Virus record (IMG/VR): IMGVR_UViG_2840904412_000002
Coordinates: 9,071 to 73,070 of that record
Direction: 5' to 3' (one strand)
DNA: 64,000 nucleotides
From: a virus
Lineage: Duplodnaviria; Caudoviricetes
A program made the translations under genes and the position numbers. Shown in pieces: positions 7,428 through 53,184 of the stretch (positions are counted from its first letter, which is position 1; each line of letters opens with the position of its first letter). The notes below the pieces were generated by a model. That model saw only the letters and a list, made by a program, of their open reading frames with translations. It ran no database searches and had not been told where the DNA came from.

Positions 7428-9317
7428 ATGAAATTTAAAAAATTACAAAAATCACCAGAAGAACTAATTATAAATTCTAAAGCTGTGACAGGCTCAACAT
7501 TAGTATATGGGGATAAGATTTACTATAAATCAAAGAAAGACAAAGTAGATGTACTAGCACCCTTAGATATGTTTTATGATATAAAATATGTGCTTAATAA
7601 TACTACTGCATCTATTATTTTATTTAGAGCTTTATGTGGACACCCTAAATTAACAAAATTTAAAGGAGACTACAAAGAAGTATTATATAAAATTAATGAA
7701 GAAAAAGTAAAATTCAATAACTTAGATTATGAGTACTTTTACAATGACCAAGTAAAACTTGATTCACAAGAAGAACAAGAAAAACTAACCAACTTTCTTT
7801 CACTTCCTTTAAATGAGAAAATCCAGTACAAATCAGTAAGACGCAGAGAGCACGTACGAGACTCACATAGCTATCAAAATATGTATTCTTATCCTTGGGT
7901 TGTTAATAGGTACTCTACTGAAGAGAAAGCTAAACTCAAAGAACTATATACTAGTGTAGGGTCTACTCTATCTGATATTGTATTTGATAATTTATATTCT
8001 AATGGTAAAGGTCATATGTATGATAAAGATAATATGACATTATTAAAGTTAATAGGAATGTTTGAACCTCAATCATACAATGGTAATAGTTATTATGTTA
8101 AAGTAAAATATTTTAGAGACTTAGAAGATATTCTGCCAGAAACTAAAATTAAAGAATCACACCTAAATACTAAGACTGGAGACTTATATATTAAAGTAGA
8201 TGGTGCTTACTCATACAGCTTCTCTATGAACATATATAAAGAAGAGTATACCAAGGAATACTATAAACAAGGCTTAACTTTTAAAACATTAGTAGAGGCA
8301 ATAAAGATACACTATATTAAATATAGTTCTATGACAAACAATGTATTATCACAACTTAACAATGACATAGTAAAAAGCGTTTTAGTATTAGATAGAATTA
8401 TTAATTCTCCTTATACTGAGCTATTTGACAATGTGTCTAACTATATAACTATACCTAAAACAAAAAAGTGGAAACTACAAGATTTATTAGGTATTTCTAA
8501 ACAACAGCTAGAAAAATTAAATGAGTACAATAAGCATGAACAACGCAATTATATTATGATGGTAGATATATTAAAAACATATTATAAAGCACTTTACACA
8601 GAAGAAAACTTAAATAAGTTAAATGATACCACATTTTTAATGTTAAACCATAATCACTCTATCGTATATGTACTTAGAGAATTGAGCAAATACTATAGTA
8701 TTAGTTTCTCACAATTAAAAAAGATAGTAGAATACGTGGATGTAGATGCTCATGAAAGACAATGTATTGGGAATGTTAAATATACTTATATTGATTATAT
8801 AAGAATCTATCAAAGGCTAGTTAGTGCGGGATACAGAACTTTAGACAGTATTAATTTCACACCATTTTCTTTAAAGTTAGAACATGATATTATATCTCAT
8901 GAATATGTAATGTTGAAAGACGATGTTGATGACTCGATATTAGAAAGTAAATATGACTCAACTTATGATGTCATCACAAAGAAAAAATATAAGTACAATG
9001 GTGAGAATATTGTATTCCTTCCTGCAGACTCTAAAGATAAACTAAAGGATGAGGGTAAGAGTTTATCTCATTGCGTTGGTGGATATACATCTAGAATTAT
9101 AGAAGGTAAATGCGTAATATTCCTTGCTCGTAAAGAAAAAAATATTGATGAGTCATGGTTTACAGTTGAAATTAGAAAGACTGTTAATGGTTTAGTCTTA
9201 GGGCAACAACAGTCTATTAATAAATATAAGTTGCCACCTGAATTAAAAGAACAACTAGAAAAAGATATTAGAAAGATTAATGCAAAGCATCAAGATGAAT
9301 TACAGAAAGCCTCTTGA
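7428..9317 (+). CDS. PcfJ-domain protein
   Basis: 629 aa; C-terminal LKDEGKSLSHCVGGY...CVIFLAR...FTVEIR typical of PcfJ-like domains. Confidence 0.7.
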   Translation: MKFKKLQKSPEELIINSKAVTGSTLVYGDKIYYKSKKDKVDVLAPLDMFYDIKYVLNNTTASIILFRALCGHPKLTKFKGDYKEVLYKINEEKVKFNNLDYEYFYNDQVKLDSQEEQEKLTNFLSLPLNEKIQYKSVRRREHVRDSHSYQNMYSYPWVVNRYSTEEKAKLKELYTSVGSTLSDIVFDNLYSNGKGHMYDKDNMTLLKLIGMFEPQSYNGNSYYVKVKYFRDLEDILPETKIKESHLNTKTGDLYIKVDGAYSYSFSMNIYKEEYTKEYYKQGLTFKTLVEAIKIHYIKYSSMTNNVLSQLNNDIVKSVLVLDRIINSPYTELFDNVSNYITIPKTKKWKLQDLLGISKQQLEKLNEYNKHEQRNYIMMVDILKTYYKALYTEENLNKLNDTTFLMLNHNHSIVYVLRELSKYYSISFSQLKKIVEYVDVDAHERQCIGNVKYTYIDYIRIYQRLVSAGYRTLDSINFTPFSLKLEHDIISHEYVMLKDDVDDSILESKYDSTYDVITKKKYKYNGENIVFLPADSKDKLKDEGKSLSHCVGGYTSRIIEGKCVIFLARKEKNIDESWFTVEIRKTVNGLVLGQQQSINKYKLPPELKEQLEKDIRKINAKHQDELQKAS

Positions 9318-27106: not shown

Positions 27107-27340
27107 TTAGGTATTATTAACAACCTCTAATTCATGTATAGTAATCATATCCATCCTATAGAAATCTCTTAGGTCTCCTTTAATAAACTTTTGCCCCTTA
27201 TGGTTTGTTTCCTCTTTATAACCTTCTTCTTTAATACGTTTAATTAAGTTCTCCTTATCTGTGTATATCTTATCTTCTCTAAAATGAAAGTTATCTTCAT
27301 AAGGTTCACAATTATCATGTTCTACTTGGTATAGTTTCAC
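27107..27340 (-). CDS. hypothetical protein
   Basis: 77 aa, RBS GAGGAG. Confidence 0.6.
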   Translation of the reverse strand: MKLYQVEHDNCEPYEDNFHFREDKIYTDKENLIKRIKEEGYKEETNHKGQKFIKGDLRDFYRMDMITIHELEVVNNT

Positions 27341-27419: not shown

Positions 27420-28580
27420 TTATTCTATTTTTGATACATTTAAATAAGTTTCAATTAGAGGTAAGACTTGTGATAGGTATTGCTCTTCAGTTAAATCTAA
27501 ACTATTTTCAGACCAAATAACAAAAGAAGTACCCCTAACTGCTAAAGGACTATCTACATCAACAAATTCACTACCTTCTACATCGTCCTCTAATTCACAG
27601 AAAGTATCAGTATTAAACTGACGTTTTATATAATCTTGTTGCCATTCTATATCTTCTTGACTAAATTTAGATTCAGGTAAGAAAGTCGTTGAATAGAAAT
27701 TACAATTTGTTAAGTCTCTATTATCATTAGCAAAATCTTTAGCTGATAAACCACCTTCAGATTTTTTCCAGTAATAAACTTCAATACCTCTATCTAATCG
27801 TTTTAATCCATTAGTATATATACTATCGTTCCATACAATAGGAGTAACGTTTTTATCAAATAAGTGTTCAGCTATTGTATTAATAAAGTCTATATAAGCA
27901 GGTTGATTATTACTTGCACCTGCTGACTCATCAGCACCAATATTAAATCTCATTTTATCTTGTTTAAATAGTGAGATAATTTCACTAACTAAGGTCTTAA
28001 CAGCAGTATAAGTATCATCATTATACCAATAATCAGCTAAAGTATCATCAAAGTCTGATTGAATGTTTTTATCAGGATACAGCTCTTTTACAATACTTAA
28101 CCATTTACCTGAATGACCTGGGACGGAGAAACATGGTGTGATTTGTACATCTTTATCTTTTGCATAATTAACAATATCTTCAATTTCATCTTTAGTTAAG
28201 TAATCTTTATTCTGAGTGGTTTGGGTTTGATTTAGATATTCAGAGTAAATACCATATCTATTGTTATCTGAAATATAGAGTTGTAAGTGTTTTCCATCAT
28301 TATCATGAATAGTATCAATAACTTTTTTAATACTATCTTTAGATAGGTATCTTCTAGCAATATCTAATAGAACCTCACGTCTATGCTTAGTCTTAAAGCT
28401 AGGTACAGGCGTTTTACTCGAATCTTTTGTGTAAGATAGGGTGTAATTATCATACCATACATTAGGTTGTAGGTTTCTAAGTTTGATACTAATATTACTA
28501 GTACCTTGTTTAAGCTCGTACTCAGACCCTTGTACAAGTTTATCATTTAAAAATAAATATAAGGTCTTATTTTGGTTCAT
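27420..28580 (-). CDS. glycoside hydrolase family 20, Dispersin B-like beta-N-acetylglucosaminidase with N-terminal Ig/FN3-like module
   Basis: LLDIARRY, LQLYISDN, YLTKDEIEDIVNYA, VPGHS, catalytic IGADE, IVWND, YYW motifs. Confidence 0.8.
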   Translation of the reverse strand: MNQNKTLYLFLNDKLVQGSEYELKQGTSNISIKLRNLQPNVWYDNYTLSYTKDSSKTPVPSFKTKHRREVLLDIARRYLSKDSIKKVIDTIHDNDGKHLQLYISDNNRYGIYSEYLNQTQTTQNKDYLTKDEIEDIVNYAKDKDVQITPCFSVPGHSGKWLSIVKELYPDKNIQSDFDDTLADYWYNDDTYTAVKTLVSEIISLFKQDKMRFNIGADESAGASNNQPAYIDFINTIAEHLFDKNVTPIVWNDSIYTNGLKRLDRGIEVYYWKKSEGGLSAKDFANDNRDLTNCNFYSTTFLPESKFSQEDIEWQQDYIKRQFNTDTFCELEDDVEGSEFVDVDSPLAVRGTSFVIWSENSLDLTEEQYLSQVLPLIETYLNVSKIE

Positions 28581-28614
28581 ATTAACATCTAGCTCCTTTA
28601 GTATTTAGTAATTT

Positions 28615-28624
28615 TAATATAACA
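28615..28624 (-). promoter_or_regulatory. late promoter motif TGTTATATTA upstream of the GH20 gene
   Basis: same 10-mer at 38461, 49130, 50009 and 53104 (- strand); matches the Kayvirus late promoter consensus. Confidence 0.6.
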
Positions 28625-28917
28625 ACATTAGTATTACTTAATGTGAAATGTAGATTTTAATAGTATCTAACCTAGTCTAGTTTATCCTCAGATAATAATT
28701 TCACCATTTTGGTTATTATGCTTTACAAAAATAAGACTCATGGTGTTAAAGTCTTACAAGGGTTCACTTTTACAATGGCTAAATCGGTCAAAGGTTTGTA
28801 AATCTTCTGTGTCTACAACAAACTGATTTCCTTTCTTATAGATGCTAACCTTTTCTCGTATTTGTCCATGAGTACTTGTAATTTGTAACCTTTTTTCAAT
28901 CACATAGATAGTTTTCA

Positions 28918-29244: not shown

Positions 29245-29307
29245 AACACACTGCCTCCTAATTAATTATATAATTAGTATAAAGGATAATAATTAGAATG
29301 TCAATAA

Positions 29308-38320: not shown

Positions 38321-38470
38321 TTCATACCGTCCTCTCAAAATAAGTTACTTTATTTTACCATATATAATAAATAATGTCAAATAAAAAATGAGGAGCTACA
38401 AGAGCCCCTCACCAAAGGAAAGATTATGATGTTATGGAATGTATCTAGTTGATACATTTATAATATAACA

Positions 38471-48594: not shown

Positions 48595-49089
48595 CTAGCC
48601 TTTTGGTGAGCTTGTTTTATGTTCATCTGGGACATCATCAATAGGTGTTTCAGAATCTAGTTTTTCCATAGGTTCTGCAATTGCTAAAATATCTTCATGT
48701 TCTAATTCACCAACTACATCTGGAGCCATAGGATGACTACCTCCGTCTACAATACTATTAACTTTATTATTCTCCCAAGTTAATGATTGTTCTGGGTCTT
48801 TAGAATCACGTGGTTCATGGTAATCTGTTTGAACAATAATACTATCTTTAATACCTTTAGTATTGTTATCTACTAAAATACCTAAACCTGCAAGCAATGT
48901 TAATATAGAGCCAATAATATTAACACCTTGCTCTACTTGACTAGAATAATCTAAGCCAAAAGCACCTGTTAATTGATTGATAAATACTGCTAAGGCAGAT
49001 ACACTAGCTACCCAAAACGTTTTACTTTTAAAACGGGTACTTAAGTTAATACCACCAACAACTGTAGGTGTCTTATCTTTTTTAGTCAA
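48595..49089 (-). CDS. hol: holin (phi LC3-like)
   Basis: GINLSTRFKSKTFWV, two TM helices, GILVDNNTKGIKDS; late promoter upstream. Confidence 0.85.
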   Translation of the reverse strand: MTKKDKTPTVVGGINLSTRFKSKTFWVASVSALAVFINQLTGAFGLDYSSQVEQGVNIIGSILTLLAGLGILVDNNTKGIKDSIIVQTDYHEPRDSKDPEQSLTWENNKVNSIVDGGSHPMAPDVVGELEHEDILAIAEPMEKLDSETPIDDVPDEHKTSSPKG

Positions 49090-49163
49090 AATAAAAAACG
49101 CCCTTTCTTGTTATATTTTTTTACATTACTAATATAACAAGATTAGACGTTTAAGGTATATTT

Positions 49164-49994: not shown

Positions 49995-50161
49995 TTAAGT
50001 TGTAAATATAATATAACACACTTTTAAAATTCAGTCAAGTAAATTTAAAAACTTTTTATAGTTTTTTTATACTAGGGTAAAAAAGTAGTAAAAAGACCTA
50101 GTTGTGTAAGGGGTCATTTATTTATATATAAAGTATAGCATAAATAAAAAACCGTGTCAAG

Positions 50162-52814: not shown

Positions 52815-53066
52815 CTAATTAGAGAGTAAGGTAGCCACCACTATTATGAAAGTATAAAGAAAAACACCCATAAAATTCCCTAGATATAGGATGTATATAC
52901 CTAATAATAAAACACAGTACATAATAAAAATAATAAGTACTTGATACATAATATTTAAACCATATATACTATTATTAGTTAACTGACGTGTAACTATATT
53001 TACTCCTGTTAGTATGATAATGAAAGCCACTAATACAATACATACTTCAATTATAGTCACCAACAT
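52815..53066 (-). CDS. membrane protein
   Basis: three TM helices. Confidence 0.5.
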   Translation of the reverse strand: MLVTIIEVCIVLVAFIIILTGVNIVTRQLTNNSIYGLNIMYQVLIIFIMYCVLLLGIYILYLGNFMGVFLYTFIIVVATLLSN

Positions 53067-53184
53067 ATTGTCACCTATTATTTCTCGAATATCATTCAAA
53101 ACTTAATATAACATAGAATGACAACATTGTATTATATTAATATAGTGAACAACTATGCCTTAGAGCAAGGGGTGGAATAAGAGT

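Follow-up and report, generated by a model that had tools for sequence, protein, structure and literature searches.

Many staphylococcal biofilms have poly-N-acetylglucosamine/polysaccharide intercellular adhesin (PNAG/PIA) as their main polysaccharide. The reference enzyme for attacking this polymer is Dispersin B (DspB), and equipping a phage with DspB by engineering is a familiar concept. Here we analysed a 64,000-nucleotide stretch of viral DNA (Duplodnaviria; Caudoviricetes), hereafter the window, which corresponds to positions 9,071 to 73,070 of the 73-kb IMG/VR record IMGVR_UViG_2840904412_000002, a record with terminal repeats. The subject is an open reading frame (ORF) of 386 aa in the window, whose product joins an N-terminal beta module to a glycoside hydrolase family 20 (GH20) domain.

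The closest described enzymes are bacterial. DspB of Aggregatibacter actinomycetemcomitans is a proteobacterial secreted enzyme. DispTs, DispTs2, DispTs3, DispLp and DispSf were reported to hydrolyse synthetic and natural PNAG in a study that also set out the residues by which dispersins are defined (Males et al., 2025; PMC11883664). The engineered phage T7-DspB (Lu and Collins, 2007, as described in the review PMC11357414) is likewise a lytic phage that brings a dispersin to the biofilm; it is man-made, frees the enzyme only at lysis and has an E. coli host, whereas the gene in the window is natural and encodes a virion-type module. In the literature searched, which did not extend to the primary papers on phage MCE-2014 and the PSU phages, only T7-DspB and bacterial enzymes were described, and no natural phage-encoded dispersin. 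For the N-terminal part, the closest described proteins are TmpH and TmpI of Kayvirus, which share an N-terminal module of ~65 aa and are under late promoter control in phage 515A1. In TmpH the module is followed by a Big_2 domain, and TmpI has nothing beyond the module; unlike the GH20 protein, both lack an enzyme domain.

The 2 kb around the GH20 gene were 99.0% identical to Staphylococcus phage vB_SpsM-DH2 (DH2; Herelleviridae/Twortvirinae; host S. pseudintermedius; record unannotated), and the GH20 protein of DH2 differed from that of the window at 3 of 386 residues. Judged by sequence comparison, the phage appears to have replaced the secretion signal of a dispersin-clade GH20 enzyme by its own tail-protein module, under a late-type promoter. 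The product is probably a late PNAG depolymerase of the dispersin type, likely to be mounted on the virion. The features on which this reading rests are as follows; the interval 27420–28624 of the preliminary description comprises the ORF and the late box upstream of it.

27420..28580, minus strand: ORF of 386 aa with an ATG start (coordinates include the stop codon); GH20 dispersin-type domain preceded by an N-terminal beta module
27423..28382, minus strand: single-domain GH20 (beta/alpha)8 barrel, residues 67–386, by Pfam, AlphaFold2 and Foldseek
27927..27932, minus strand: codons of the catalytic pair D217-E218 (DspB D183-E184) in the motif IGADES, by alignment to DspB
28386..28580, minus strand: beta module of TmpH/TmpI type, residues 1–65, ending in KTPVPSFKTK, by PHROG, BLASTP, alignment and AlphaFold2
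28615..28624, minus strand: TGTTATATTA, an exact match to the Kayvirus late −10 box, 34 nt ahead of the ATG

A dispersin-type GH20 domain with intact catalytic residues

The preliminary description had recognized a DspB-like GH20 barrel with a substrate-binding DIARR motif and a catalytic DE pair, and the searches bore this out. Pfam matched residues 68–363 to PF00728 (GH20; E 1.9e-24; 87.1 bits against a cut-off of 22.3), with DIARR at residues 73–77 and the DE pair at D217/E218. A sequence search of the PDB returned four dispersins as the four best matches: DispTs3 (8QAK, E 3e-56), DispTs2 (8QB6, 1.5e-54), DispLp (8QCE, 4.2e-25) and DspB (1YHT, 1.7e-23), followed by StrH at about 1e-10. The AlphaFold model (45 sequences) had a mean predicted local distance difference test (pLDDT) score of 86.8, mostly above 90 in the barrel. 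Foldseek aligned it to DispTs2/DispTs3 with a template modelling (TM) score of 0.93 and a root-mean-square deviation of 1.5 Å, and to DispLp with a TM score of 0.85; DspB shared the dispersin fold at 0.83 (E 3.6e-23). The same four dispersin entries made up the top six Foldseek rows (0.83–0.93), and the next entry was StrH at 0.61.

DispTs2 and DispTs3 of Terribacillus saccharophilus and DispSf of Mammaliicoccus fleurettii are likewise single-domain GH20 barrels. They were 33–35% identical to the phage protein, had the same catalytic and pocket residues and fell into the same tree clade. They are secreted via a signal peptide, whereas the phage protein has the virion-type module in that place, and the motif preceding the DE pair reads VLGGDE in the three enzymes and NIGADE in the phage protein. 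DspB was only about 23% identical; its residues R27, D183, E184, E332, W216, W237 and W330 all have equivalents in the phage protein.

Residues were mapped with a HMMER alignment to DspB and a MAFFT alignment of 25 relatives. Among the 45 sequences, E218 was invariant and D217 nearly so, and both were kept in all full-length phage forms (38–63% identity). R27 and E332 together with the Trp triad W216/W237/W330 were described as dispersin substrate residues (reviews PMC11357414, PMC11883664). The phage protein kept them as R76, E358 and W250/W271/W356, and it also kept W250/N251/D252 (DspB W216–D218), Y270 (Y236) and the dispersin loop N271-x-N273-x-Y275, as N292/N294/Y296. E200, F205 and S113 were conserved as well. 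Since R76, D217/E218, E358 and the Trp residues were kept, the catalytic machinery is intact.

A tail-protein module in place of the signal peptide

The protein has no signal peptide, as the preliminary description had stated: the highest 12-residue hydrophobicity (Kyte-Doolittle) in its first 45 residues was 0.51, compared with 1.94–3.60 in six cellular relatives. The place of the signal peptide is occupied by residues 1–65, which were predicted as beta strands. This module matched two PHROG families annotated as major tail protein (phrog_341, E 6.8e-5; phrog_4178, E 1e-3). By BLASTP it was 33% identical to TmpH of DH2 over 60 aa (E 1e-5) and 36% identical to the N-terminus of TmpH of phage A3R over 61 aa (E 2e-5); the corresponding module of phage MCE-2014 matched A3R TmpH with an E value of 4e-12. 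In an alignment with eight TmpI-family proteins, L37, Y43, P60, F62 and T64 were invariant in 16 rows.

The preliminary description had likened the module to the immunoglobulin (Ig)/fibronectin type III (FN3) modules of staphylococcal phage tail proteins. Homology to tail proteins was found, and the Ig/FN3 likeness is tentative because the structural matches all lay below the noise level. The AlphaFold2 model of the module had a pLDDT of 76.6. The best VIA-align Z scores were 5.5 for the Tuc2009 tripod (5e7t_B) and 5.2 for the Bxb1 tail tip, and many FN3 domains scored 3.6–4.8, with a noise level of about 8. One homologue (P0223) bears the name 'fibronectin type III domain-containing protein' in its source record.

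In DH2, three genes lie past a putative sigma-factor gene (assigned by position; sig in A3R) and correspond to Kayvirus ORF127, tmpH and tmpI. They encode a protein of 212 aa, one of 172 aa that consists of the module and a Big_2 domain, and one of 71 aa that is the module alone. Immunogold electron microscopy was reported to place TmpH on the tail of A3R and 676Z (PMC8236893). Matrix-assisted laser desorption/ionization of intact K1/420, 812 and K virions gave peaks of 23,069, 17,718 and 7,818 Da (PMC5923470). The masses that we computed from A3R match these peaks: 23,068 for ORF127 minus Met, 17,717 for TmpH minus Met and 7,817 for TmpI. Thus TmpI, a virion component, is essentially this module alone. 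TmpH was not mentioned in the paper on the 812 baseplate.

ORF127 and TmpH are adjacent and otherwise unrelated, and they share a near-identical C-terminal peptide of ~15 residues (VQVEPGETSADIS in DH2; L009:824-2004 in DH2, L066:13883-15047 in A3R). This peptide may be a common docking or strand-exchange element.

Putative late promoter, neighbourhood and distribution among phages

The preliminary description had placed a late motif upstream of the gene. The box found there, TGTTATATTA, is identical to the late −10 box, with no accompanying −35 box, that was derived by experiment in Kayvirus vB_SauM-515A1 (PMC7698491, Table S2). The window holds five exact copies, all on the minus strand; 1.54 were expected, and five were reached in 2 of 100 shuffles. 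The other four copies were found by sequence match at these positions.

38461..38470, minus strand: exact late box
49130..49139, minus strand: exact late box
50009..50018, minus strand: exact late box
53104..53113, minus strand: exact late box

Of these boxes, one stands ahead of the holin gene (48595–49089), one between a dUTPase-like and a nucleotide-kinase-like gene, and one ahead of a 94-aa gene (52815–53099). Phage 515A1 was reported to have the late promoter pL74 before its holin gene, and its ORF127, tmpH and tmpI genes form the late unit TU29, which rose 22- to 33-fold at 30 min (PMC7698491).

All seven Staphylococcus Twortvirinae records examined had a box with at most one mismatch no more than 70 nt from the start codon of the GH20 gene. 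DH2 has the exact TGTTATATTA 34 nt from the ATG. At the same distance, MCE-2014 and PSU5 have TGATATATTA and PSU4 has TGCTATATTA (one mismatch each; the latter a variant of 515A1 pL67). PSU6 has TGATATATTA 67 nt from the ATG, and Alsa_2 has TATTATATTA (one mismatch) 39 and 44 nt from it. Boxes with at most one mismatch occurred 41 times in 128,000 strand positions, with no excess over shuffles, so the chance of finding one at any given position is about 3e-4. The boxes of MCE-2014, PSU5 and PSU4 are not independent of one another because these phages share upstream sequence.

The next gene upstream is preceded by a sigma-70-like promoter (TTGACA-17-TATACT, 11/12) at 29304–29276, in agreement with the preliminary remark that the neighbours use sigmaA promoters. 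The interval from that gene to the start of the GH20 gene yielded no consensus promoter. The immediate surroundings of the gene contain three further features.

28593..28599, minus strand: ribosome-binding site AAAGGAG, 12 nt before the ATG, read from the sequence
28727..28755, minus strand: weak hairpin AAGACT/AGTCTT with an 11-nt loop and then a T run, right after the stop codon of an upstream 54-aa ORF
27107..27340, minus strand: 77-aa gene downstream of the GH20 gene (phrog_2884), conserved in K-like phages; the PSU5 homologue is annotated BofL

The hairpin was recognized by reading the sequence and was not called by the terminator scan; it may isolate the GH20 gene from early transcription upstream. 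A three-codon mini-ORF (ATG TTA ATA TGA, 28578–28589, minus strand) starts 4 nt past the ribosome-binding site, and its stop codon overlaps the GH20 start codon (ATGA). It may mean translational coupling, or it may be merely another reading of the long 12-nt spacer.

We then compared the 2-kb stretch around the gene with phage records. It was matched by 212 of them, and all but DH2 (211 records) covered less than 80% of it. PSU6 matched 48% at 71.5% identity. Among the matches listed, 18 K-like records matched bases 25–404 only, which is the flanking bofL-like gene; the GH20 gene therefore is an insert in a conserved backbone. In the window and DH2 the bofL-like gene is located downstream of the GH20 gene, and in MCE-2014 and PSU5 it directly precedes it, so that the short and long GH20 genes flank opposite sides of one conserved gene. 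The tail sheath gene lies outside the window. Among sequencing runs, one DNA run held the whole 2-kb stretch with 22 differences and another held fragments at 100% identity. Two RNA-library runs held one or two short contigs each, one of which spans the late box and the DNA upstream; such contigs may be DNA and show neither starts nor levels, and thus give no evidence on transcription or habitat.

A close GH20 homologue was present in 7 of 50,697 phage records (six phages), in line with the earlier statement that the gene is unusual in this phage group. Another 11 records had distant matches of 22–27% identity, and a scan of IMG/VR added only two contigs, near-identical and of P0005 type. PSU6 encodes the same short form as the window (381 aa). 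MCE-2014 (697 aa), vB_SurM-PSU5 (727 aa) and vB_SurM-PSU4 (623 aa) encode long forms, named 'tail fiber protein' (phrog_6320), in which a homologous N-module is followed by a conserved linker, collagen Gly-X-Y repeats (PF01391), a middle part of ~140 aa and a C-terminal GH20 domain about 38.5% identical to that of the window. The long-form genes (L002:2876-4966, L004:2786-4966 and L006:3098-4966) lie in the same left-arm genome region as the window gene, on the opposite side of the bofL-like gene, and have their late-like box at the same 34 nt. They differ from the window protein in having the collagen stalk and the middle domain (of unassigned family), both absent from the window protein, and in keeping H and D at DspB positions 53 and 116. 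A paper on Myoviridae safety does not mention the GH20 protein of MCE-2014. In the Logan protein P0006 (712 aa), a BppU_N baseplate anchor (E 6.3e-24) replaces the module and is followed by collagen and GH20.

In phage Alsa_2 (L005:3212-4905), the GH20 gene is split into ORFs of 469 and 70 aa and was found in three pieces by tblastn. Because the frame breaks past the catalytic pair, this copy looks like a decaying gene.

Chromosomal relatives and the proposed role

An exhaustive search of 1.84 billion representatives returned 1481 matches at E ≤ 1e-3, 213 at ≤ 1e-10 and 13 at ≤ 1e-30; an earlier word-index search had given five proteins only. The nearest cellular proteins had 343–352 aa and 34–38% identity, and their hydrophobic N-terminal signal sequence runs straight into the barrel. 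They include a 'family 20 glycosylhydrolase' of S. coagulans and one of S. hominis/S. haemolyticus. A genome scan with an 11-sequence alignment added loci of Terribacillus saccharophilus, Mammaliicoccus fleurettii, Macrococcus, S. pseudintermedius, S. intermedius, S. cornubiensis and S. pasteuri.

We built a tree of 38 rows (IQ-TREE quick search, support by the Shimodaira–Hasegawa-like approximate likelihood ratio test, SH-aLRT, only), rooted on two multi-domain GH20 proteins and leaving out the truncated Alsa_2/P0014, most of the distant matches and DspB. All nine phage GH20 proteins (five short and four long forms) grouped with P0015 (SH-aLRT 91). This group sat inside a 29-row clade (SH-aLRT 94) with all Staphylococcaceae and Terribacillus enzymes, outside which the DispLp-like lactobacillal sequences lay. 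The phage enzymes thus fell among the Terribacillus and M. fleurettii enzymes and not into a non-dispersin GH20 clade, the outcome that the preliminary description had named as counting against it. The Terribacillus and M. fleurettii rows come from the same species as validated enzymes and may differ from those enzymes. P0058 had been a candidate for the DspB cluster and was rejected, as a name look-up gave Furfurilactobacillus.

A 25-kb contig of Macrococcus lamae encodes a 320-aa GH20 protein without signal peptide (L011:186-1148), which is 40% identical to the window protein and groups beside the phage clade.

We tested 14 chromosomal loci, taking about 4 kb of flank for each, and in five of them (L020, L017, L022, L018 and L015) an icaADBC-like cluster adjoined the GH20 gene; the species were S. 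pseudintermedius, S. intermedius, S. cornubiensis, S. pasteuri and M. fleurettii. In S. pseudintermedius LMG 22219 (L020:3965-8410), the GH20 gene stands tail-to-tail with a four-gene cluster for a GT2 glycosyltransferase (IcaA-like), a small protein, a polysaccharide deacetylase (IcaB-like) and an acyltransferase-3 (IcaC-like). The GH20 and ica-like genes converge and abut in three species (S. pseudintermedius, S. intermedius, S. cornubiensis). In S. pasteuri and M. fleurettii both are on one strand, with the GH20 gene upstream of the cluster. The position beside ica-like clusters ties the clade to PNAG metabolism independently of biochemistry. S. pseudintermedius was reported to make an ica-dependent biofilm that DspB detaches (reviews PMC13226480, PMC11357414).

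From these results we infer the following course. The protein would be a dispersin-type beta-1,6-N-acetylglucosaminidase that works by substrate-assisted catalysis through D217/E218. PNAG/PIA, which staphylococci make as an ica-dependent exopolysaccharide, is the most likely natural substrate. The enzyme would be made in the cytoplasm late in infection from the phage late promoter, with no export signal, and the TmpI/TmpH-type module most likely mounts it on the virion tail. Virions could then cut through the PNAG matrix to reach biofilm-embedded cells, and unassembled enzyme freed at lysis could loosen the matrix for the progeny.

Several observations weigh against this reading. Six positions were reported as dispersin-only (H53, D116, W216, D218, W330 and G331; PMC11883664), and the phage protein kept three of them (W250, D252 and W356). 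The other three are Y102, S152 and S357, where DispTs2, DispTs3 and DispSf have H, D and G. D116 was reported to hydrogen-bond the catalytic Asp (PMC11883664), and the presence of S152 in its place means that activity could be lowered or altered. The tree lacks DspB, and the support of 91 for the phage group comes from a quick search only. Foldseek with the moderate-confidence model of the module returned nothing at E ≤ 1e-3. A Pfam search found neither a collagen stalk nor BppU_N in the window protein, which thus has no trimerising stalk to go with the module as a presumed anchor. On the promoter side, the published boosting extensions of the late box (TWN upstream, TT downstream) are absent, the flanks being TGT and AA; of the rows shown from Table S2, the box is followed by AT in pL32 and pL110 and by GT in pL82 (PMC7698491). 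Some perfect boxes in 515A1 gave no expression rise (PMC7698491), and a Kayvirus-like late box was found in 0 of 2 IMG/VR contigs of P0005 type.

The substitutions are a reason for caution on rate or specificity. Y102 is common to the short-form phage clade (window, P0002–P0004 and PSU6), S152 is confined to the window and DH2, and Ser or Asn at the G331 site occurs in all full-length phage forms and some chromosomal enzymes; a further change is E69 for G20 (DspB numbering).

The preliminary description had left it between a virion-displayed and a lysis-released enzyme. For release, the same enzyme would act on the same substrate as a soluble late protein that builds up in the cytoplasm, is freed by holin/endolysin lysis and dissolves PNAG near the burst cell so that the progeny diffuse; the module would then bind carbohydrate or cell wall and not serve as an anchor. 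We regard this as possible but rather unlikely. It agrees with the missing signal peptide, with a late box like that of the holin gene, with a short form that has no collagen stalk or recognized baseplate anchor, and with weak fold matches that include FN3-type modules appended to glycoside hydrolases, and the engineered T7-DspB was described as working in this way (PMC11357414). However, the module makes up the virion proteins TmpI and TmpH, and in relatives the GH20 domain is fused to collagen stalks and BppU_N, which are typical virion-fibre architectures. Display on the virion is favoured because N-terminal virion domains swap before a constant enzyme, as in virion fibres; the module is exchanged for BppU_N or extended by collagen in the relatives, which argues for a virion-displayed over a lysis-released enzyme.

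Two other explanations concern the enzyme itself. Wall teichoic acid (WTA) N-acetylglucosamine (GlcNAc) matters for staphylococcal phage adsorption, and the protein could be an exo-beta-N-acetylglucosaminidase on such a GlcNAc surface polymer, altering or destroying receptors so that progeny are not lost on debris, or exposing a receptor. GH20 enzymes of this clade were reported also to release monosaccharide in an exo manner (PMC11883664), and the second-shell changes Y102, S152 and S357 could shift specificity. We nevertheless consider this explanation improbable: the nearest validated enzymes act on PNAG, chromosomal members of the clade are linked to ica clusters, and the pocket residues typical of dispersins (W250, D252, W356 and E358) are retained. 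A catalytically weakened GH20 domain that serves mainly as a PNAG-binding module, in an accessory receptor-binding protein, would fit Ser at the support of the catalytic Asp and Tyr at the pocket base. It is hard to reconcile with intact R76, D217, E218, E358 and all three Trp residues, or with the retention of D217/E218 across the full-length phage forms; in addition, the chromosomal enzyme of S. coagulans has Gly at the D116 position, so this site tolerates change. We give this explanation very little weight.

A dispersin-type PNAG depolymerase carried on the virion therefore stays our preferred reading, and tail docking allows a more speculative extension, which we put forward tentatively and hold to be rather doubtful. 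The phage would be a natural 'enzymatic phage' in which the module docks several dispersin copies along the tail, in the manner of TmpH/TmpI, so that the whole tail becomes a surface that cuts PNAG. Through module swapping, such devices would have arisen in Twortvirinae on three or more occasions: with the TmpI-type module alone, with this module plus collagen, and with BppU_N plus collagen. In this picture the clade-specific H53Y, together with the D116S and G331S of this phage, might adapt the enzyme to the partly deacetylated, cell-bound PIA of its hosts.

For annotation, the analysis corrects the database entries of phage GH20 genes, which are labelled 'tail fiber protein' or stand unannotated. 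If the preferred reading is true, a natural staphylococcal phage dispersin would be a ready-made, host-adapted anti-biofilm enzyme. It could also be one reason why otherwise similar therapeutic Kayvirus-like phages differ in biofilm activity, and the small docking module might reveal how Twortvirinae tails carry accessory enzymes.

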